From positions 480,001 to 544,000 of the forward strand of contig CAWBEI010000002.1 in NCBI GenBank assembly GCA_963787835.1: a stretch of DNA of 64,000 nt. The letters run 5' to 3'. A program made the position numbers and the translations under genes. The stretch comes from Ignavibacteriota bacterium. GTDB lineage: Bacteria; Bacteroidota; Ignavibacteria; Palsa-1295. The notes below the pieces were generated by a model, which was given only the letters and a program-made list of their open reading frames with translations, was not told where the DNA came from and ran no database searches. How positions within the stretch are numbered: the stretch's first letter is position 1; each line of letters opens with the position of its first letter. Positions 47,094 to 57,508 of the stretch are shown one piece after another.

Positions 47094-48428
47094 GTGCGAC
47101 GCGCGCTTTTTGTCCTCCTGATCGCGCTCGTTCCATGCACTATATTTGCGCAAGGCTACCGCGGCCGCGATTTCTGGATCTGCTTTCCGCAAAATGCGGT
47201 CATCGAACAGAATCACACGCTTCATCTCTCCATCTATATTACTGCTGAGTCGCGCGCGATCGGCTCGATCACAAATTTATTAGACAGCACCACTCAAAAT
47301 TTCTCGGTTGAATCTGGCGCATCCATTGAACGGGACATCGATACCGAGATCGAGATCGGTTCATCGGAACGATCGCAGCGTAATTCCGTCCACATTGTAA
47401 GCGATCAGGACATTTCGGTCTATGTCGTCGATCACCGCCCCGCATCTACCGACAGCTACATGGCGATACCAACAGAATATTTAGGAAAGGAATATGTGGT
47501 CGCTGGATATACCACCCTACGCTATGGTGGTATCAGATTTGGATTTACTTCCCAAGCCACGTTCGTTGCGACCGAGGATAACACCTGGATCGCGGTTCAT
47601 CTTGCAGGAACTACTACCGGAGGACTCCCTAAAGGACGAACCCTTATGTTCGGATTGAATCGTGGCGAGACGTATCAAATTCAAGGCGGATACGAGAGTG
47701 GGGATCTCACGGGTTCCACCATTTCCTCGACGAAGCCCATTGCGTTCTTCACCGGTCACAGATGTGCACAGGTGCCAAGCGAAGTCGAGTTCTGCGATAT
47801 GTTGCTGGAATCGGAACCACCCGCAAATGACTGGGGAAAAGCATTTGTGCTTACAAAATTCGAGGGTAAAGACTATTCGGTGGCGCGAGTAATCGCAAAT
47901 GCCGATTCCACTCAGGTCTCGATAAACGGAGCCAATGCCAAAACGATCAACCGTGGCGAATTCTATGAAGTGGACACGTTGTATCACGATGCGATCATTA
48001 CCACGAGCAGACCAGCACTCGTTGCGCAATATTGCACAAGCTCGGACGCCGATACGATCAAAATTGGAGATCCGTTCATGCTCATCGCAATCCCAAGCGA
48101 TCGGTTCACCAAAGAAACGACAACCACATCCGTCGTCGATACTCGATTCGAGCATTTTCTGAATATCGTTGTGCCTGATTCCGGCGTTACTTCTCTCAAG
48201 ATCGACGGAATGATGGCAGCACTTGGATCATTACCACCGGGAGTTTCCCTTTCTTCGAAACGAATACTTGCCGCTGCCAGAGCGACCGTGTTTGCATTTC
48301 GCGTCCCATCCGGCCGGCATATGGTAGAGTGCAATGCTCCAGTAGCTGTTTATTCTTACGGCTTTGGAGTAGCCGATCAAAATTACGACTCCTACGGCCA
48401 CTCCTGCGGAATGCGGCTGGACAAATAA
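47094..48428 (+). CDS. exported IgGFc-binding-protein N-terminal domain protein
   Basis: GRDFWICFPQN, GETYQI, DLTGS.I.S.KPIA..GH.C, GDPFM and SYG motifs; signal peptide; no CTD. Confidence 0.75.
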   Translation: MRRALFVLLIALVPCTIFAQGYRGRDFWICFPQNAVIEQNHTLHLSIYITAESRAIGSITNLLDSTTQNFSVESGASIERDIDTEIEIGSSERSQRNSVHIVSDQDISVYVVDHRPASTDSYMAIPTEYLGKEYVVAGYTTLRYGGIRFGFTSQATFVATEDNTWIAVHLAGTTTGGLPKGRTLMFGLNRGETYQIQGGYESGDLTGSTISSTKPIAFFTGHRCAQVPSEVEFCDMLLESEPPANDWGKAFVLTKFEGKDYSVARVIANADSTQVSINGANAKTINRGEFYEVDTLYHDAIITTSRPALVAQYCTSSDADTIKIGDPFMLIAIPSDRFTKETTTTSVVDTRFEHFLNIVVPDSGVTSLKIDGMMAALGSLPPGVSLSSKRILAAARATVFAFRVPSGRHMVECNAPVAVYSYGFGVADQNYDSYGHSCGMRLDK

Positions 48429-48524: not shown

Positions 48525-48607
48525 AATGATGAATGATGAATTATGAATGATGAAGTGGGAAGGAAGTTAAAGAAATCAACATAATTCATCATTCATAATT
48601 CATAATT
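48525..48607. repeat. inverted heptamer repeats upstream of fusA
   Basis: atgatgaatgatgaattatgaatgatgaa / cataattcatcattcataattcataatt. Confidence 0.8.
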
Positions 48608-48614
48608 GTCAGCA

Positions 48615-50711
48615 ATGTCACGCAAACAACCTTTAGAGCGCACGCGAAATATCGGGATCATGGCGCATATCGACGCCGGTAAGACCACGACCACCGAGCG
48701 CATCCTCTTTTATACCGGCCGGGTTCACCGCATGGGCGAAGTCCACGAGGGCGGCGCAACTATGGACTGGATGGAACAGGAGAAAGAGCGTGGCATCACG
48801 ATCACGTCTGCCGCCACAACCTGCACCTGGCGCGATACCGCGATCAACATCATTGACACCCCAGGCCACGTTGATTTTACCGTAGAAGTCGAGCGTTCGC
48901 TGCGCGTACTCGATGGTGCGGTTGCGCTGTTTTGCGCGGTTGGCGGAGTAGAGCCGCAATCGGAGACGGTGTGGCGTCAGGCCAACAAGTATGGTGTGCC
49001 CCGTATTGCGTTCGTCAACAAGATGGATCGCGTCGGCGCAGACTTTTTTAACGTCATCACGATGATCAAGGAGCGGCTCGGAGCAAATCCGGTTCCGATC
49101 AATCTCCCGATCGGTGAAGGCGAAATGTTCGCCGGCGTCATCGACCTGGTCGAGAACAAGGCGCGCATGTATAATGAAAGCTCCCTTGGCACAACGTGGG
49201 ATGAAATTGAAATTCCCGAAAAGCTGAAAGAACACGCCAAAGAATGGCGTACACGCCTCTTTGAATCTGTTGCAGAAATTGATGACACGCTGCTTCTGAA
49301 ATATCTCGAAGGCGAAGAGATCACGCGTGAAGAAGTGATGCGCGTGCTTCGTTTGGCTGTTATCGATTCGAAGATCATTCCCGTACTTTGCGGGTCGGCG
49401 TTCAAGAACAAGGGCGTGCAGGATCTGCTGGATGCCGTCGTGGATTACCTCCCAAGCCCCGTCGATGTCGGCGCGATCGAAGGGCATCATCTGAATTTGA
49501 CCGATCACATCAAGCGCGAGCCGGACGATAAAGAAAAATTCGCCTCGATCGCGTTCAAGATCATGACCGACCCGTTCGTCGGGAAGCTCACGTTCTTCCG
49601 CGTGTATTCCGGTACCTTGAAATCAGGTTCCTATGTATTGAATTCCGTGAGCGGACGCAAGGAGCGCATCGGGCGCATCCTGCGCATGCACGCGAACCAT
49701 CGTGAGGATATTGAAGAAGCTTACACAGGCGATATTTGCGCCGCTGTCGGACTCAAGCAAACACGCACCGGCGATACGCTCTGCGATGAGGATGATCCCA
49801 TCGTGTTGGAACGAATGATCTTCCCGGAACCCGTTATTTCGCTCGCCGTCGAGCCAAAAACCAAAGCAGATTCCGAAAAAATGTCGGAAGCATTACAAAA
49901 GCTTGCCGATGAAGATCCTACGTTCAAAGTGAAAACGGATGAAGAGACCGGGCAGACCATTCTTTCCGGTATGGGCGAGCTGCATCTGGAAATTCTGGTC
50001 GATCGCATGAAGCGCGAATTCCGCGTGGAGGCCAACGTCGGTAAGCCGCAGGTCGCGTACAAAGAAACGATCCGCAAGAAAGTTACACAGGAAGGCCGCT
50101 TCATTCGCCAGTCTGGCGGACGCGGTCAGTTTGGTCACGTCTGGATCGATGTCGAGCCGAACGAGCCAGGAAAGGGTTACGAGTTCGAGAATGCCATCGT
50201 CGGAGGAACGATCCCGAAGGAATATATTTCCCCGGTCAGCGCGGGCATTGTCGAAGCGATGAAGAATGGCGTGCTCGCCGGGTATCCCGTCGAGGACATC
50301 AAGGTTCGTTTGTTCGATGGCTCGTTCCACGAAGTCGATTCGAGCGAAATGGCGTTTAAGATCGCAGGCTCCATGGCCTTTAAGGAAGCCGCGCGTAAAG
50401 CGAATCCCGTTATTCTGGAACCCGTGATGGATGTCGAAGTCGTGACGCCGGAAGATTACATGGGCGACGTGATCGGCGATCTCACCAAACGCCGTGGCAA
50501 GATCGAAAGCATGACTGCGCGCTCGGATGCACAGGTCGTAAAAGCCTCTGTGCCGCTCTCGGAAATGTTCGGGTATGCGACGGTGATGCGCTCGATGTCG
50601 CAGGGCCGCGCGATCTACTCCATGCAGTTCTCGCGGTACGAAGAAGCGCCGCGCGCCGTGCAGGAACAGATCATCGAAGCCCAAAAGGGCAAGAGCGGGT
50701 CGGGATCGTAA
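48615..50711 (+). CDS. fusA: elongation factor G
   Basis: [37 protein letters not shown] and DSSEMAF motifs. Confidence 0.98.
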
Positions 50712-50724
50712 TCACGAATTTCAA

Positions 50725-51295
50725 TCCCGAAAGGACGGCATATTTGCAGCCCCGGACGTGAGTCCGGGGTTTTGCGTTTTGTATAAACGCGTAGGTCGGT
50801 GCTTCCATCGTGGGCGATGGAGCCAGCCCGACAATCCCCGAGAACGAAAGAAAAAGTGCCGTAGGGACGTGCTGCGCACGTCCTTTGTGCCGGAGCGCTA
50901 ATTCCAGATTTTGGATGATCTCAAATTCGTTTGACATTCACCGGGGCGGACGTGCGCAGCACGTCCCTACGGATCCAGCTCCGATATGAGCGGCATATTG
51001 GTAGCCCCGTGCGTAAGCGCGGGGTGCGCGGGATCTTTTTAAGAGCCAGAGTCCCGGAGCGACGACACAAAAAAGTGCCGGAGGCACGAAGTACCCGCAG
51101 CCCAGGGTGGAGCGAAGCGGAACCCTGGGTAACGAATAAAATTAGAGTTTATTAGCCCTGAAAGGGCGATGTTTGCCGCCGGGATTTTACAACGCCCTTT
51201 CAGGGCTTGGGAACATAAAACGCAACGCTAACCCAGGGTTCCGCTCGCAAGCTCGCTTCACCCTGGGCTGCGAGTACTCCGTCGCTCCGCGACTA
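50725..51295. repeat. cluster of palindromic repeat units (left end of island)
   Basis: AGCCCCGGACGTGAGTCCGGGGTT half unit; GTAG REP pair 50861-50970; half unit ~50978-51070; full AGCCCTGAAAGGGC/GCCCTTTCAGGGCT unit ~51073-51294. Confidence 0.85.
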
Positions 51296-51300
51296 ATTGC

Positions 51301-52197
51301 TCATTCAATTATTGGAACTATCTGAATTTTGTTGGACAGTTCGGTACGACCGAAACTTTTCAGGAAGGATTGCAGGGCGTTGAAGCCGGATTGGTCAGGT
51401 ACGACGATTTCCAAAACATCCTCATCGTTGAACGTTAAGTTGAATTCGGGCTTTAACCATTTATCGTCAGAACCAGCGTCAATAGTTTCGTCGCCCTTAA
51501 AACCATGAGGAGACAGTGCGCGCCATTCCCTCTCATCATAATTGCGAATGCGCTCTCCGGTTGGGAGATTTTCTTCGTAGCAGCGCATATAGGAGTCGCG
51601 ATCCTCAAGTTCATTGTGGAGCCTGCGTATAGCCCACATTAGAGCACTGAAGGTTTGCCGCATTGCTTCATCTTCTGGCAGGTTGCCATCTGCAATCGCA
51701 ACTAATTCCCGCATGTATTTTTCGAGTTTGCCGTGTTCGGTTCGAAGAGCCGTTGGGTCCATTGGCGTTCCATCTCCATATTGCTCAGAGAGTTCACGGA
51801 GTCTTGATGCCTGCAACATTTGCAAATAACTTCTGTCCGAACTATATGGCTCCGGCAACACGTCCGGCAAATGATTTAAGTTCTTGAATGCTAAGTACGA
51901 GCCTCCGACACCTACGGAGTCAGTATGCACATAACGGACGGGCGAAATCCGATTTTTTATTCCCCATTCCTTTGTCAAACCAATGGCCACCGGACGCGCT
52001 TTGCGAAGGTGTGGAGCGTCAGATGAAGGCAGGTCGCAAAAACAAACAACATAATTGGTCTGCGTGTAAGGAAACTTGGGGTATGGAACCGTTTCGACCT
52101 GTTTAGAATAGCGGAACCCGCCACAGGCCAGAATCGATTTGCATGCCTCTAATGATGTATAATGGAAAAGCGTGTCAGTACTGATCTTATTGGGCAT
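51301..52197 (-). CDS. AbiGi-like abortive infection family protein
   Basis: LFHYT..IL..GF.., VCFCDLP, IGLTKEWG...ISPVRY and YDEREWR motifs (family recalled, not searched). Confidence 0.7.
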   Translation of the reverse strand: MPNKISTDTLFHYTSLEACKSILACGGFRYSKQVETVPYPKFPYTQTNYVVCFCDLPSSDAPHLRKARPVAIGLTKEWGIKNRISPVRYVHTDSVGVGGSYLAFKNLNHLPDVLPEPYSSDRSYLQMLQASRLRELSEQYGDGTPMDPTALRTEHGKLEKYMRELVAIADGNLPEDEAMRQTFSALMWAIRRLHNELEDRDSYMRCYEENLPTGERIRNYDEREWRALSPHGFKGDETIDAGSDDKWLKPEFNLTFNDEDVLEIVVPDQSGFNALQSFLKSFGRTELSNKIQIVPIIE

Positions 52198-52222
52198 ATC
52201 CCCTCCAAAATTTTACATTATT

Positions 52223-52642
52223 TTACGCCTTCAAAAACCCCAGCTCATACACCATTGGCTGTAACTTTTCCGTCAATGCTTTGTAGGCCGATTCGAAGGG
52301 TTTGAAGCTGACGGGCGGGAAATCGCCGCTTTCGTTACGAGCTTGCAACGCCTTGCGGATTTGATACCACCCCACATCCGCGCGGTTTAGTTTTAGTTCT
52401 TCGCGGACGGTGTGAACGTCAGTATCGGCAAAATATGCTTTCCACAATGCTTTTCCGGCTTCGAGCACTGCGCTGGCTTCTTTCGAGAATTTCTTACCGC
52501 GCATATATTGCACCATAAAATCGCTCTCGAACCTGTCGGGCGCGCCGACCTCTTTTTCAGTGAAGGGAATGAAATGGTTCACGATGCTCCACTTCTTTCC
52601 GTTCCATTCTAAATCGTTGGCGCTGGCGGTGAGGTTGCTGCC
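52223..52642 (-). pseudogene. C-terminal fragment of a large restriction-modification-like protein
   Basis: NHFIPFTEKEVGA..FESDFM and R.DVGWYQIR motifs; the ORF-track N-terminus is translated repeat. Confidence 0.6.
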
Positions 52643-52651
52643 TAAGAATTT

Positions 52652-52751
52652 AGTCCCGAAGGGATGGTGTACTCGCAGCCCAGGGTGTAGCGTAGCGGAA
52701 CCCTGGGTTCGAGGTAGGTATAAATTTCTAAGCCCCGAAGGGGCGATGTAC
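52652..52751. repeat. half palindromic unit
   Basis: gtactcgcagcccagggtgtagcgtagcggaaccctgggt..agccccgaaggggcga, homologous to 51073-51170. Confidence 0.8.
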
Positions 52752-53093
52752 CTAATCATCGTCCTTCAAAAAATATTTTGGATCGTATTCAATCCCTGCC
52801 GCTTTCAACATATCCTCAAACTCTTCTTGGAACGTCTTATGACGATGATGTTCCTCTTGATTTTCGATGTATTGCGCGACATTCTTGAGATGACTTGCGC
52901 TTACGCTGAATACACCATAACCGCCTTGCCAGCTAAAATCTTTTCCTAATTTTGATTTCAACCAAGCCGATGATTTCGATTTTATCTCACGAACGACGGT
53001 TGCGACCGACGATTCACGACCGAGATCGATCAGGAGGTGCACATGATCAGGCATTCCGCCTTCCATAATCAATCGCGCCTTGCATTCGTGCAA
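52752..53093 (-). mobile_element. tnpA: IS200/IS605-type Y1 (HUH) transposase TnpA, 5'-truncated
   Basis: DHVHLL HUH motif, WQGGY, YIENQEEHH catalytic Tyr; N-terminal strand missing. Confidence 0.88.
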
Positions 53094-53101
53094 GATCGGA
53101 G

Positions 53102-53378
53102 GTTAACCCAACATTCCGTCCGCCGCGGCGGACTCCATGTTGGGCTGCGAGTACTCCGTCGCTCCGCGACTATTGAATCTCAGTGGCGAAGCCACGATGT
53201 ACTCGCAGCCCAGGGCGCGCGAAGCAAGCCCTGGGTCATGAATTTTAACAAAATCAAGCCCTGTAAGGGCGGTGTACTTCGCCCTTTCAGGGCTTGATAA
53301 AAATAAGAATGGTTCCGTTAACCCAACATTCCGCTTCGCTCCATGTTGGGCTGCGAGTACTCCGTCGCTCCGCGACTA
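53102..53378. repeat. half unit plus full palindromic unit
   Basis: gttaacccaacattcc..tccatgttgggctgcgagtactccgtcgctccgcgacta at ~53102-53172 and ~53317-53378; agccctgtaagggc/gccctttcagggct centre. Confidence 0.85.
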
Positions 53379-53817
53379 AGATTCGCCAACAAGTGCATCC
53401 ATGATTGGAATATTTCTCCGGCGGGAATTATCGTGCAAGCAACATGTCACGAGATTATCGTATGAATTATCCCCGCCTTTTGTGACAGGCTGAATGTGAT
53501 CGAGCGTCGCGCTGAATCGTGTTAGCTGCTTACCGCATTTGTAACACTTGTAGCCGTCCCGTTCGAAAATCTTGAGACGATTTTCAGCGACATTGTAAAA
53601 GAGTGCCGAATTCCACGACCGAGTGACGAAACAAATACCAATAGAATGCGGCCTCGTATGGTAACAATCGGGGCTGAAGAAAATCCACAATCTGACAGAC
53701 GATACCTGGATGTTCGAGAGCGTCGAAGTTTCTCTCGAACGAATCCGGAGCGGCAGCCTTTGAATCCGTTTCGATCTCGTTAAGCAGTTCTCGAATTTTT
53801 TCGATTTGTTCTTTCAT
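53376..53817 (-). pseudogene. HNH endonuclease gene, disrupted
   Basis: N-terminal part 53584-53817 is out of frame with RDGYKCYKCG..TLDHIQP..GGDNSYDNLVTCC (53376-53600). Confidence 0.7.
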
Positions 53818-54265
53818 ATTTTTACAAAATTACGAATAAACTCATCTTCCTGCGTTTCGATCTTGAAGGAAACGAGGTGCGTACCGATATACTGCGAGAC
53901 GGTGTCCAGCGCTTCCTGCGTAACGTCGCTCGCCCGCTTGCCCCACTTGATCGTCTTTTTTTCGAGGAACGGAATAACGTCCGCGCTCTTCATTATAGCC
54001 GCTTTCTGCGTATCGACCACCGCAAGAAATGGCGGAACATACTCGCCCTTGTTCAATGCCTGCTGCACATAATGCAGACCGCCGCGGCGGACGTGAACAT
54101 CGCATAACTGGAAAGCTTGGAGTTATCCTTCGCCTCGAACCAAATTTCTTTGGTTTGAATATCGATCAGGTTTTTCGAATACCCCTTCAACCCCAGCGCC
54201 TTGATGTAAATATCCTTCACATCCTCCTCGCTTTTGCACTGTTTCAGTTTTTCAAAGAGGGTCAT
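53814..54265 (-). pseudogene. N-terminal fragment of a restriction-modification-like protein, frameshifted at a palindromic insert
   Basis: SEEDVKD..ID....WFEAK..MFT..LHYV (PD-(D/E)xK-like); frame break at 54078-54091. Confidence 0.6.
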
Positions 54266-54370
54266 GCGTGTGAAGGGTTATGGATTGGGTTATGAATTCG
54301 GGATTGATGCTTTGCGGGCGCGGGAAAGAACATAGTGGGCACCTATTTCGTGTTCCATCCATCCCACGAT

Positions 54371-54462
54371 TTGTGCCGTCCCTCCGGGACTTTTAACTCT
54401 AAAAAAATCGCTAACCCCGGACTCACGTCCGGGGCTACGAATATGTCGTGCCTATCGGCACT
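54371..54462. repeat. half palindromic unit (right end of island), inverted relative to the left-end units
   Basis: ttgtgccgtccctccgggact..aaccccggactcacgtccggggctacgaatatgtcgtgcc. Confidence 0.8.
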
Positions 54463-54854
54463 AAGAAAATAATTTGGAATTTTGAGGCGTCTCGGAAAAG
54501 TGTCGTATATTAGGTGGTGAGATGATGGGCACCTATATCAATTACGAATTAAGAATTACGAATTAAGAGTAGGGGCTCGGGGTTCATTGACAATCGTCGG
54601 CGGTGGCTTTCGTTATGAACGAGTCCTTTGAGAAAATGGATTTTACTATTCTTTCAGAACAAATGGCGAAAGCAGCTCGGAAACGAGGGGTCTTCGGGAA
54701 CTCACAAGAAAAAGAAATGGCACCTATTTCCAATAGAACATTAGTAAGGGTGGTAAACATTTTTACCTACGTACCGGGAAACGGGAAGGAGCAAAATTCG
54801 TTGTGAAGGTACTCTGGCACGTTTAGCCGGAACATCCTCCATAATCACGACACG

Positions 54855-56114
54855 TTGCCTTTGATCGAACCACCCTCCACTCCCACTGGAAATCCGGTCC
54901 CGCCGGATCTGCCACCCGATCCACATATCATGGATTACGTGGTGCTTGCGACCAGCCGTAAGTGGACTATGCTTGCGATCACGCTCCTGTGCGGGTTTGG
55001 AGCGCTGGCACTTACCTATATGTTGCCACAGGTGTTCATGGCGCAGGCGACGTTGCTGCCGCCGGATCGGCTATCCTCCTATAACCTTCTATCGAAGTTC
55101 AAGTCGGGTTTCGCCTTGGAAATGTTGAAGGAGGTGGAAAATCCCTCCGTCGATCTGCTCCAGAATATTCTGGAATCCCGTTCGCTCGATGAGCGGCTCG
55201 CTCAGGATAGTGCGATCCATCGCTATTTTAGCGCGCAGGGTCTGCATGGGAAAGAGTTGGTCCTTGCCGTCCAAAAATCGATCAAGGTTTTACCAGGATT
55301 TTCGAAAGTGGATGTTCAGGGAACCGTGGGTACAGGTTGGTTCCCAACCGGAGCGCAAAAGGAGAATGCCAGGGTAATGTCATCGTATTTCACGAATCTG
55401 GCGATCGACTGTATGGATAGTACGCTCCGAGCGGCTATTCGTTCTTTGGCTCACTCGACGATGCTGTTTGCCGATTCCGATTATGCGCTTAAGAGCCGGG
55501 AATTGGATTCTCTTGACCGCGTTCAGGAAGCGTTTGAGCAAGCCAACGGAGTCGTGAAATTGGAGGCACAAACCATAGCTTCCATCGAGCATTTGGGCGA
55601 ACTGAAAGCTGCTCGCGATGAGGCAGAGATCAAACTCCACCTCCTCGAATTGGACTTGTCCGATGATGACACTAAAAAGGAAGAGGCCGTTGCAAAGCTG
55701 AATGAAGCTGAGTTCGTCGCCAACACGTATGAAACGGAACGGCAGATCGGCCCCGCATTCGACTCGCTTCCGGAAGTAAGCCGGCGTTATGCAGAATTAC
55801 TTCGTTCCAGGAAAGAATTGGAACCGATTGTTTCCTTCCTCCGAATAGAAACCGAGCAACAGCGGATCTTCGAGGTTCGAGAAAAATCCTTTATCACAGT
55901 TTTAGATCCTGCGGAACCTCCGGAAACCCGGATTAGCCCGATACGATCCCAGATGGGAATTCTGGGATTGATTGTCGGCGCCGCTCTTTCGATCCTGTAT
56001 ATGGCCTTCTATGGGCTGCGTCTTTCCTGGAAGAAGGAGCGAAAATCGCGCAATGAGACCAGACCGGAAGTATTAGAAGCCGCAAAGAGCATCTTTGCCC
56101 ATAATAACCTATGA
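54855..56114 (+). CDS. Wzz/Wzc-like polysaccharide chain-length determinant
   Basis: two TM segments around a coiled coil; ATLLPP and VLDPAEPPE..SP motifs; start uncertain. Confidence 0.85.
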   Translation: MPLIEPPSTPTGNPVPPDLPPDPHIMDYVVLATSRKWTMLAITLLCGFGALALTYMLPQVFMAQATLLPPDRLSSYNLLSKFKSGFALEMLKEVENPSVDLLQNILESRSLDERLAQDSAIHRYFSAQGLHGKELVLAVQKSIKVLPGFSKVDVQGTVGTGWFPTGAQKENARVMSSYFTNLAIDCMDSTLRAAIRSLAHSTMLFADSDYALKSRELDSLDRVQEAFEQANGVVKLEAQTIASIEHLGELKAARDEAEIKLHLLELDLSDDDTKKEEAVAKLNEAEFVANTYETERQIGPAFDSLPEVSRRYAELLRSRKELEPIVSFLRIETEQQRIFEVREKSFITVLDPAEPPETRISPIRSQMGILGLIVGAALSILYMAFYGLRLSWKKERKSRNETRPEVLEAAKSIFAHNNL

Positions 56115-57508
56115 GCAACATACGGATCCCCGAGCATGCTCTCGATCGCAGAAGGGTGTTCTTCTCGATACGGATGGTAAAGTATTTCCTTTGCTGGCTG
56201 CTCCTCTGGCAGGATGGGATGGTTCCCGGTTCATTACTTCAACTCCGGACCTTCATCCCCATACCGCACGACATCACGATGATGGAGGTGTTAGCCGCAA
56301 TGCTGTTCATCGTAGTACTTATCGAGCGTTCGATCACACTGGATTTCACGATACGGCGATCCTATTTCAGCGGTCCACTCCTGTTGATGGCGCTGGCGTT
56401 TTTTATCTCATGGTGCCGTGGGAGTTATATGAAACAGCAGATCGCGTTCATCCTGGAATTCCACGATGCCTTTGAACTTCCATTCACATTCCTTCTTATT
56501 AGTTCCGCATTTCGCGATGAACAAGACCGGGAAATGCTATGGAAGCTGCTGTTCTATGCCATTATTGCAAAGGCATTCGATGGAACATACATCTACTTCT
56601 TTTCCGCCCGGCCTGAAAAATATTGGGGCGTGGTGCAGTCCTGGCGGGATGGCTACCTTCTCGGAATCGGATCGATCGGGTTCCTCTTGTTGCTCCAATA
56701 CCACGGAACATATCTTCGACGTCTGAAATGGCTCATGATCGCAACCTTTCCTGTACTGGCGCTCACCTTTGTCATGAGCTTCCGGAGAACATTTTTTGTC
56801 GGGGCCTTCATTTGCATGGTGGCAATGTTTTTTACTCTTCCGAGTGAAAAACGAAAGCTGCATCTGTTGTTAGTAGTTTGTGTGTTGGGAGGATTTCTCC
56901 TCACCGTCTTTCTGACCAACCCTCTGGAAGTTGCCACGCGTCTGACCGGTATCGTTGCACCCCAGAATGAAGGTTCTGCCTTCATCCGTCTGATGGAACT
57001 TCCAAACGTCGTGCAAAATATCCTGAGAAATCCCATTTTCGGTGTACCGGTAGGTATCCCCTGGACGACCTACTACCGCATGCCTGTCTCCGCAGTTTAT
57101 ACGACGCTTGGCACGCATAATACGTATCTGTACTGGTCTCTTCGAGCCGGTATCGCCGGCTCCATTGCCTTTATCTGGCTGATCTGTAAGATATGGAAAA
57201 CTGCCCTCATCAACTATCGGCTTCGAAAAACAGAGGAGGACTTCCTGTTCAGCCAGTGGGGTATTCAGATGATGATCATGTATCAAGTAGCTTGCTTTTT
57301 TGGACTCATGTATGGTGATGCAATGTCTGGTGTTATGTCAGTGCTGATGACGGTCTTTCATCTCCAAACCAAACACCTTACTGGACGTTCGAGTCTGCGA
57401 GAGGTGGCATTCCTGAAAACGATGCGAGCTGGAGAACTCGTTTATAAAGAACCTTTCCTCCGCAAGCTGTATGGTCTTTATAGGAAACGTCCTCTCGCTA
57501 TTCAATGA
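56111..57508 (+). CDS. O-antigen ligase/polymerase (Wzy_C) family protein
   Basis: many TM segments; SFRR, R...PIFG and HNTYL..GIAG motifs. Confidence 0.8.
   Translation: MSNIRIPEHALDRRRVFFSIRMVKYFLCWLLLWQDGMVPGSLLQLRTFIPIPHDITMMEVLAAMLFIVVLIERSITLDFTIRRSYFSGPLLLMALAFFISWCRGSYMKQQIAFILEFHDAFELPFTFLLISSAFRDEQDREMLWKLLFYAIIAKAFDGTYIYFFSARPEKYWGVVQSWRDGYLLGIGSIGFLLLLQYHGTYLRRLKWLMIATFPVLALTFVMSFRRTFFVGAFICMVAMFFTLPSEKRKLHLLLVVCVLGGFLLTVFLTNPLEVATRLTGIVAPQNEGSAFIRLMELPNVVQNILRNPIFGVPVGIPWTTYYRMPVSAVYTTLGTHNTYLYWSLRAGIAGSIAFIWLICKIWKTALINYRLRKTEEDFLFSQWGIQMMIMYQVACFFGLMYGDAMSGVMSVLMTVFHLQTKHLTGRSSLREVAFLKTMRAGELVYKEPFLRKLYGLYRKRPLAIQ

Follow-up and report, generated by a model that had tools for sequence, protein, structure and literature searches.

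Transposons of the IS200/IS605 group, to which IS608 and ISDra2 belong and of which palindrome-associated transposable elements are transposase-less derivatives, classically have dissimilar left and right ends with subterminal hairpins on one strand, and they insert on the 3' side of a fixed tetra- or pentanucleotide, with no duplication. In REPIN-RAYT systems, a Y1 gene is flanked by inverted palindromes and accompanied by dispersed REPIN doublets (Bertels and Rainey 2011, PMC3116915; PMC3337134). Restriction-modification (R-M) genes have been described as inserted into or substituted for other R-M genes, and their loci as showing long direct target duplications and linkage to transposase genes and repeats (Furuta, Abe, and Kobayashi 2010, PMC2853133). 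Here we describe a cluster of palindromes and defense genes (positions 51073 to 54265) in a stretch of 64,000 nucleotides from an Ignavibacteriota bacterium (assembly GCA_963787835.1, contig CAWBEI010000002.1, positions 480,001 to 544,000), which we call the window. The locus belongs to known classes, combining IS200- and REPIN-like repeats with R-M loci that replace each other. We consider it probable that the cluster is an eroded small anti-phage island whose palindromes derive from an IS200-group Y1 element, as its ends and its doublets, likely the product of single-strand transposition and not of gene capture.

Like IS200/IS605 members, the element found here is small (~660 bp) and codes for TnpA only, has hairpin ends, is multi-copy with non-autonomous derivatives, and was inserted into a coding gene, at codon ~651 of the R-M gene that we call X; unlike in the classical members, its ends are inverted repeats of each other. 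With REPIN-RAYT systems it shares a Y1/HUH gene set between inverted extragenic palindromes; the palindrome is also dispersed extragenically as inverted doublets folding into long hairpins. However, the unit here is ~105 nt long with three hairpins, whereas the REPIN palindrome is single and 20 to 60 nt long, and the Y1 gene is multi-copy and often decayed rather than single-copy and domesticated; the RAYT model failed. Integrons, in which an integrase gene with attI and a promoter adjoins an array of ORF-plus-attC cassettes, are brought to mind by the co-oriented short genes, each with a hairpin repeat after it, and by the variable content and the defense genes, but here integrase, attI and Pc are absent, the repeats are those of a transposon, and the boundaries in relatives are mostly elsewhere. 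Pfam and PADLOC searches of the open reading frames (ORFs) of the island found no recombinase besides the Y1 fragment. In contrast to the R-M cases of PMC2853133, it is one widespread family, X, that is repeatedly the victim, and its last ~50 codons form a recurring module boundary.

Hairpin units and the Y1 element

Window positions equal positions on contig C2 (C2:480001-544000) minus 480000; G000 denotes the window's own genome (3.57 Mb, 7 contigs), and relatives are numbered from G001. An initial annotation of this DNA had described a cassette-like array of defense genes, all on the minus strand, and every sizeable island ORF between the flanking genes fusA and wzz/wzy does lie on that strand. 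The array itself held up in part: the AbiGi-like gene is intact, but two of the ORF groups proved to be one gene, the HNH gene has a deletion, and tnpA is truncated. The island contains the following features.

51073-51174, plus strand: L unit A+ (nhmmer E 7.7e-26)
51186-51297, minus strand: L unit A- (nhmmer E 9.8e-28)
51073..51297, no strand: doublet A+/A-, tail-to-tail, REPIN-like (single-stranded DNA fold)
51301..52197, minus strand: AbiGi-like gene, 298 aa, the sole intact cargo (Pfam PF10899 8.9e-13, 49.1 bits; PADLOC AbiGi 3.8e-11)
52223-52759, minus strand: 178-aa ORF of no family, containing the X C-terminal fragment (ORF list)
52223..52648, minus strand: X C-terminal fragment, aa 653-794 (tblastn, 88.7% identity to the intact X of G001)
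52648-52751, plus strand: L unit B+, downstream arm of the Y1 element, abutting X codon ~651-653 (nhmmer 4.7e-24)
52752..53093, minus strand: Y1 (IS200-group) transposase, 5'-truncated (Pfam Y1_Tnp 1.3e-17, profile 39-121 only)
53094-53173, minus strand: L unit C-, partial, hairpins 1-2 only (nhmmer 5.8e-11, model positions 5-75)
53178-53277, plus strand: L unit D+ (nhmmer 4.1e-18)
53274-53381, minus strand: L unit E- (nhmmer 3.5e-23)
53178..53381, no strand: doublet D+/E-, tail-to-tail (nhmmer)
53376..53817, minus strand: HNH endonuclease pseudogene in two overlapping frames, its stop codon supplied by unit E- (Pfam HNH 8.2e-09)
53814-54068 and 54053-54265, minus strand: two overlapping ORFs of the X N-terminal region (ORF list)
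53820..54265, minus strand: X N-terminal fragment, aa 1-146, frameshifted (tblastn)

Six long (L) units of ~105 nt with three hairpins lie within 51073-53381. Each begins with AG or TTAG. Hairpin 1, of 5 bp, is joined by a GNAGTACYCGCAG linker to hairpin 2, which has 8 bp and a variable loop; an AT-rich spacer then leads to hairpin 3 (AGCCCTGAAAGGGCG). An alignment of 30 units showed a conserved AG, often TTAG, at the outer ends and compensatory changes at 13 of the 20 predicted pairs in the three hairpins. Folded as single-stranded DNA, the A+/A- doublet reached -78.6 kcal/mol (z = -11.55), and none of 200 shuffles folded as well. Since six of the 36 genome-wide unit matches (E<1e-8) fall within 2.3 kb of the 3.57-Mb genome, and given the compensatory pairs and the doublet fold, the cluster is beyond chance. 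These units were located genome-wide with a refined nhmmer profile; a generic two-hairpin pattern scanner gave 55 matches versus 37 in the reversed genome and was rejected as too noisy.

Gene ends abut the units, as had been noticed from the letters alone. The AbiGi stop codon (51301-51303) is 3 nt from unit A-, the homology to the R-M gene begins at 52648, the outer end of unit B+, tnpA is flanked by B+ and C-, and the stop codon of the HNH ORF (TAG, 53376-53378) lies inside the terminal TTAG of unit E-. Five public runs contain parts of the window, all as contigs; the fragments of four of them, 84-3,605 nt in size, showed no circular or excision junction and no circle of gene plus unit, in a kind of data where rare molecules would not appear. 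In a public contig of one relative the segment 51068-52215, comprising AbiGi and doublet A, was replaced or lost.

The window copy of the Y1 gene, situated between units B+ and C-, is without its first ~38 codons, and the inner part of arm C- is gone as well. The fragment corresponds to aa 39-151 of an intact gene on contig 4 of G000 (47686-48147, minus strand, 153 aa, 81% identical to the window fragment), which is flanked by inverted units at 47585-47689 (+) and 48150-48253 (-). A Y1 gene lies between a plus and a minus unit at three loci, intact on contig 4, decayed in the window and as fragments on contig 5. The contig-4 copy confirms that the palindromes are associated with a Y1 transposase and that the local tnpA is truncated, with ~38 codons missing, and it supplies the intact gene that the initial annotation had called for; since this copy is intact and unit flanked, an enzyme in trans exists.

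The Y1 protein scores 92 bits for Pfam PF01797. Among NCBIfam models, the Y1 proteins score 68.9 bits for IS200/IS605 NF033573 (cutoff 55), while the RAYT model NF047646 gives 28.8 bits versus a cutoff of 80. L-type copies number three in G000, one of them intact, and at least four in G002 by profile span, one with a stop codon. Because the IS200/IS605 model is passed and the RAYT model failed, and because the element is multi-copy and often broken in relatives, we file it in the IS200 group; the units are the inverted ends of this element together with its non-autonomous, transposase-less doublets. G000 has seven Y1 genes, each with its own inverted flanking repeats, and thus at least seven distinct Y1/repeat pairs in one genome. 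Three longer Y1 proteins (160-212 aa) are flanked by GTAG-headed hairpins (genes at contig 2:1501663-1502301, contig 2:1492630-1493112, and contig 6:115139-115741).

Across the genome the refined profile gave 42 nhmmer matches, the 36 at E<1e-8 falling in 17 loci, and we counted 11 tight tail-to-tail doublets of ~225 nt each. All unit loci were intergenic by crude ORF calls. Flanking genes at the 14 plain loci were divergent in eight cases, convergent in three and tandem in three, and the genome-wide co-orientation anticipated by the initial annotation was not seen. Neighbors include proS, ribosomal protein L10, SMC, RNase P protein, YidC, HPr kinase, SecA, ClpX, and RNase E/G. Defense- or toxin-antitoxin-like genes were found within two ORFs at 6 of the 15 unit loci outside the island, a count that has no baseline (a type I R-M pair with a PIN gene, PDC-S01, DUF4238, HigBA with a TIR gene, DUF5677, and a HEPN gene). 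Three unit loci (786 kb, 997 kb, and contig 4:205 kb) seem to be repeats of a single larger segment, and the 17 loci therefore cannot be counted as independent events. Of the relatives, G006 alone shares part of the doublet that lies upstream of proS in G000.

The 46-nt Rfam model RF01687 (Acido-Lenti-1) covers hairpin 1, the conserved linker and hairpin 2, here only the outer half of the ~105-nt unit. One match, in the S-type unit at 54415-54462, reaches 39 bits, above the gathering score of 37, while six other units score 21-36 bits; the L units, at 21-33 bits, stay under the 37-bit cutoff. Genome-wide, ten matches exceed it. In eight genomes of the genus, 8 of the 31 Y1_Tnp matches had opposite-strand RF01687 matches on both sides within 260 nt, 5 of 31 on one side, and the remaining 18 none, the flanking counts being lower bounds given that the Rfam search scored 150 of the 650-860 first-look candidates per genome. 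Flanked loci include contig 2:643202-643859 and 77289-77931 of G000. These inverted pairs around Y1 genes point to a DNA repeat rather than a small RNA gene. The motif was graded as probable RNA ("y" in the table) by Weinberg et al. (2010), and the accessible portions of the literature naming Acido-Lenti-1 contained no mention of RAYT or REPIN. Instead of an RNA gene, this Rfam family may represent a DNA motif of transposon ends or REPs.

Gene X and its replacement in relatives

Judged from the sequence, a single gene of ~794 aa, X, accounts for two of the supposed cassettes, which are its halves. By tblastn, aa 1-58/60 of X lie at 54265-54086 and aa 61-146 at 54077-53820, separated by a frameshift of 8 extra nt (54078-54085) that are absent from the contig of one relative; residues 147-652 are missing from the window, and tblastn found no second X copy in the G000 genome. 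In a blastn comparison with 40 relatives, window segments 52223-52642 and 53833-54266 were each conserved at 74-90%, and in G001, G010, G012, and G019 both are the ends, ~1.5 kb apart, of one ORF. X is contiguous in these four genomes and in G047 (793-795 aa), the intact gene of G001 being located at L001:2705-5086.

The family of X is very large and highly conserved: of 8,000 proteins scored, more than 5,000 matched at E<=0.001. The best 120, drawn from Ignavibacteria, Bacteroidota, Campylobacterota, Spirochaetes, Proteobacteria, and candidate phyla, have identities of 72-100%, and none has a Pfam domain; across many phyla, relatives are 63-82% identical. A Pfam search of X up to E 5 gave nothing beyond noise, and a PDB sequence search was without match. 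Weak methylase matches were obtained (PADLOC MTase_II 1.7e-5, TIGR02987 3.4e-4), and the nearest named ESM Atlas clusters are N6_Mtase/Eco57I at 0.96. Single-chain type IIG/IIL enzymes of the MmeI/Eco57I kind combine a PD-ExK nuclease motif at the N terminus, motifs I and IV of gamma-class N6A methylases, and a specificity region at the C terminus. Residues invariant in 23 aligned X members are D35, E44, K46, methylase motif I VWDMCCGVGNL (300-310), and NPPY (387-390), of which we take the D..ExK residues to resemble the D-X9-ExK motif of MmeI. X is thus probably a single-chain MmeI-like R-M enzyme, and its methylase-type motifs agree with the R-M label that the fragment had been given. The window copy has lost both methylase motifs with its missing middle.

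X was surveyed in 35 genomes of the family, G000 included, and X or pieces of it were found in 22. Five copies are full length and open, and one further copy carries a stop codon. At nine loci, in G000 and 8 of 14 same-genus relatives, X has been gutted with both ends kept (L004, L008, L003, L110, L111, L112, L119, L121, and the window). The N-terminal pieces end at aa 84-232 and the C-terminal pieces start at aa 630-735, with C-terminal breakpoints clustering near aa 630-653 and 733-743. Breakpoints had been predicted to coincide with unit ends, but they are unit free in all nine cases on the N-terminal side and in five of nine on the C-terminal side. X is filled by a NotI-like restriction endonuclease and an N6_N4 methyltransferase in G006 and by a TdeIII-like endonuclease and a methyltransferase in G014, both with no unit, by an EAD7/MUG113 gene and the Y1 block in G002 contig 1, by two unknown ORFs at the second locus of G001, and by the HNH gene in G000 and G008.

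The HNH gene of the window consists of an ORF at 53376-53690 overlapped in another frame by 53584-53817. Its intact form, of 237 aa, is found in G008, compared to which the window copy is without ~276 nt and has a changed frame. The order in G008 is X aa 1-196/208, a short methylase-like tail, the intact HNH gene, the same doublet and the contig end. In this genome (L110:3716-4357) the tail that continues the N-terminal piece of X is similar to the last part of an N4/N6 methylase (…LKPAGSLYLHCDP…), which suggests that the HNH gene came in an R-M pair whose methylase was lost afterwards. The Y1 block (arm, tnpA, arm) meets X at codon ~651-653, within 1-2 nt of the CTAA end of the unit, and the same X/unit junction occurs in the window, in contigs 1 and 4 of G002 and in G005. 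The element of G002 contig 1 is full length, with a stop codon in Y1, that of G002 contig 4 has an intact Y1 gene of 151 aa, and in G005 the element at the junction is reduced to one arm.

The slot directly after X is another variable position. At seven of eight aligned loci (the window, L001, L002, L003, L005, and two in L007), divergence starts directly at the X stop codon; the exception is L004, where it starts a few codons before the stop and a repeat follows directly. The gene in the slot varies: it is AbiGi in the window, Shedu SduA in G010 (PADLOC 1e-124), a PDC-M19 pair in G014, and elsewhere unknown ORFs of 183, 224, 267, 272, and 316 aa. The G014 pair, assigned to the PADLOC candidate system PDC-M19 (B at 1.9e-114 plus a DUF488 protein), lies downstream of a gutted X at L008:4906-6602, and a PDC-M19A-like gene directly follows X at L048, from another phylum. 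In other phyla, a same-strand ORF was found within 120 nt of X in 29 of 69 usable loci, the genes after X including AbiU2 (twice), DUF559, PLD, DUF488, and an HhH-GPD nickase as well as housekeeping genes. AbiG is a two-gene system, AbiGi plus AbiGii; Pfam and PADLOC searches gave no match to AbiGii among the ORFs of the island. Of 34 family relatives, one has a close AbiGi homologue. In G001 the gene also stands alone, in an ectopic module with an 84-nt remnant of X beside a carboxyltransferase gene and far from X. G000 retains the carboxyltransferase gene of that site without the other flank.

At many loci an unrelated gene is preceded by a remnant of X comprising its last 26-60 codons. Such 3' remnants without the rest of X were found in G003, G012, G013, G044, G047 (three), G001 (two), G002, and G009. 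In G047 (L115:1-2142, on a contig of 2,194 nt) two copies of ~155 nt form direct repeats around GIY-YIG-like and Fic-domain ORFs, which were compared with PDB sequences; from its sequence, the arrangement looks like an insertion with a long target duplication. The remnants do not share an exact 5' end, their starts being spread over ~100 nt, which fits recombination or deletion and not a site-specific cut.

Competing explanations

In the reading that we favor, that of an eroded anti-phage island with transposon ends, an HNH-type R-M module would have been inserted into X first and the Y1 element thereafter, with deletions following. By analogy with IS608 TnpA and the TnpA-REP of Escherichia coli, the Y1 HUH enzyme would recognize the units as single-stranded DNA hairpins, and the position of the units at gene ends would reflect a tightly packed operon in which insertions survive only between genes. 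In relatives, cargo would turn over by recombination in conserved flanks, namely, the ends of X and, passively, the repeats, and gene swapping is likely ordinary recombination rather than transposase work. The patterns of units beside X fit such passive use of homology, or co-travel of the transposon with the island. Several observations nevertheless weigh against this account. The order of the insertion events is one that we infer, and the gene calls in the genome-wide unit survey are crude longest-ORF calls. At family loci, 17 of 24 X 3' ends are followed within 1.2 kb by a unit as the next repeat (26 rows, from which one duplicate and one 15-residue partial, both negative, were dropped), and 3 of the 10 unit loci of G001 are at X-derived modules. 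Selection for intergenic sites alone is insufficient to explain this excess of units beside X, and the patterns are also expected from activity at unit ends. Between the window and G002 contig 1, the slot flanks are 89-90% identical while the gene differs (AbiGi versus the 183-aa ORF), and the divergence begins at most 4 nt from the foot of hairpin 1. In addition, the outer arm of the same Y1 block adjoins different genes at three loci (the HNH doublet, a MUG113-domain gene, and a 272-aa ORF).

A part of these patterns could be explained if modules made of the last 26-60 codons of X, one or two defense genes and a unit were exchanged between X loci by general or homology-facilitated recombination, with X ends and units as homology arms, X as a landing pad for defense genes and Y1 in no catalytic role. 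We regard this as unlikely, although it draws on the X 3' remnants before unrelated genes, the direct repeats of G047, the AbiGi module lying far from X in G001, and the scatter of remnant 5' ends, and long target duplications and allelic substitution have been described for R-M genes (PMC2853133). Divergence exactly at the X stop in seven of eight loci is sharper than illegitimate recombination alone predicts, and why this repeat family, rather than any repeat, follows X stays unaccounted for. Still more doubtful is the idea that the last ~50 codons of X, the defense gene or genes and a three-hairpin unit constitute true mobile cassettes, moved by Y1 or through hairpin recombination joints; it keeps a small share of our credence because of the unit excess after X and the swap of slot genes between similar flanks. 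The initial annotation had gone further, proposing an integron-like platform run by the Y1 enzyme with hairpins of 100-220 nt as attachment sites for single-stranded gene cassettes, and this we judge very improbable. Gene ends do abut units, an intact Y1 enzyme exists in trans, some breakpoints are at unit ends (the outer arms of the Y1 block and, comparing the window with G002, the distal end of the slot), the region downstream of X is enriched in units, and other unit loci have defense- or toxin-antitoxin-like neighbors in 6 of 15 cases. However, two of the "cassettes" are halves of one gene, three of five cargo units are pseudogenes or fragments, and no slot has units on both sides, its proximal boundary being the X stop in seven of eight loci. 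Furthermore, R-M modules gut X in the absence of units in G006 and G014, units elsewhere are mostly between divergent genes and beside housekeeping genes, and a literature search combining REP-associated tyrosine transposase with cassette or integron found no such system among the papers listed. The possibility to which we give least credit is that the units are structured small RNA genes of the Acido-Lenti-1 type, placed at gene ends for a role in transcript stabilization or termination. It can appeal to the RF01687 matches, one of them above the gathering score, to the compensatory stem changes, and to the grading as probable RNA by Weinberg et al. (2010). Yet single-stranded DNA hairpins are equally expected to show stem covariation, inverted doublets place units on both strands, their positions differ from species to species, and Y1 genes are flanked by them in opposite orientation (on both sides for 8 of 31 Y1 matches in eight genomes and on one side for 5 more).

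The fusA-wzz hotspot and wider meaning

The island occupies a gap between fusA and a wzz/wzy pair, which contains other repeats at its edges:

48606..50711, plus strand: fusA (EF-G), 701-aa ORF, the conserved left anchor of the variable hotspot
50723..50785, plus strand: short-type (S-type) unit, truncated (Rfam RF01687 36.1 bits, match 50723-50769)
50859..50972, no strand: palindrome of a third repeat family, with perfect 25-nt arms
50977..51071, plus strand: S-type unit (RF01687 20.7 bits)
54376..54466, minus strand: S-type unit (RF01687 39 bits at 54415-54462; nhmmer 2.3e-09)
54471..54731, no strand: multi-copy element of ~260 bp with tandem AATTACG/AATTAAG heptamers, the right edge of the island relative to G014
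54855-57508, plus strand: wzz/wzy pair, right of the island

The gap (window 50712-54854) differs in content among five genomes (the window versus L024, L025, L028, and L029) and is a variable hotspot of defense and mobile DNA downstream of fusA, whose DNA identity in same-family relatives is 76-88%. This supports the earlier expectation that the locus is of defense type and varies between relatives. In G014 the gap measures 660 bp and contains an S-type hairpin doublet alone, a near-empty site. It measures 8.6 kb in G006, including a 1,119-aa Eco57I/MmeI-type gene, and holds a DUF4258 gene and a sortilin-like gene in G005 and IS1595 with a methylase in G001. By blastn versus G014, G006, and G009 the left homology breaks at ~50782-50787, and homology to G014 picks up again at 54715. 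Insertion of the island into the center of an S-type doublet was considered and rejected, the left break being inside the spacer of the unit, at neither its center nor its end. The S unit at 50977..51071 is complementary to the one at 54370-54462, the two forming inverted repeats, and the ~260-bp heptamer element has copies at three other sites in G000 and in relatives. The palindrome motif of the third family (window 50859-50972) directly follows X in G006.

A transposase-run integron for defense genes was an attractive idea that is unsupported here, and in its place stands a concrete anatomy. The gutting of X by other nuclease or R-M modules, with its ends kept, offers a clean natural example of defense systems that take each other's place at one site, and the X family itself, at ~794 aa very widespread and with no Pfam domain, deserves a family model. 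In this genus RF01687, which Rfam lists to date as an RNA whose function is not known, appears to be the outer hairpins of Y1 transposon ends, which would alter the annotation of thousands of matches. Finally, if an exchange of modules at X were true, X and an IS200-type repeat would make up a previously undescribed defense-gene exchange system in Ignavibacteriota-like bacteria.

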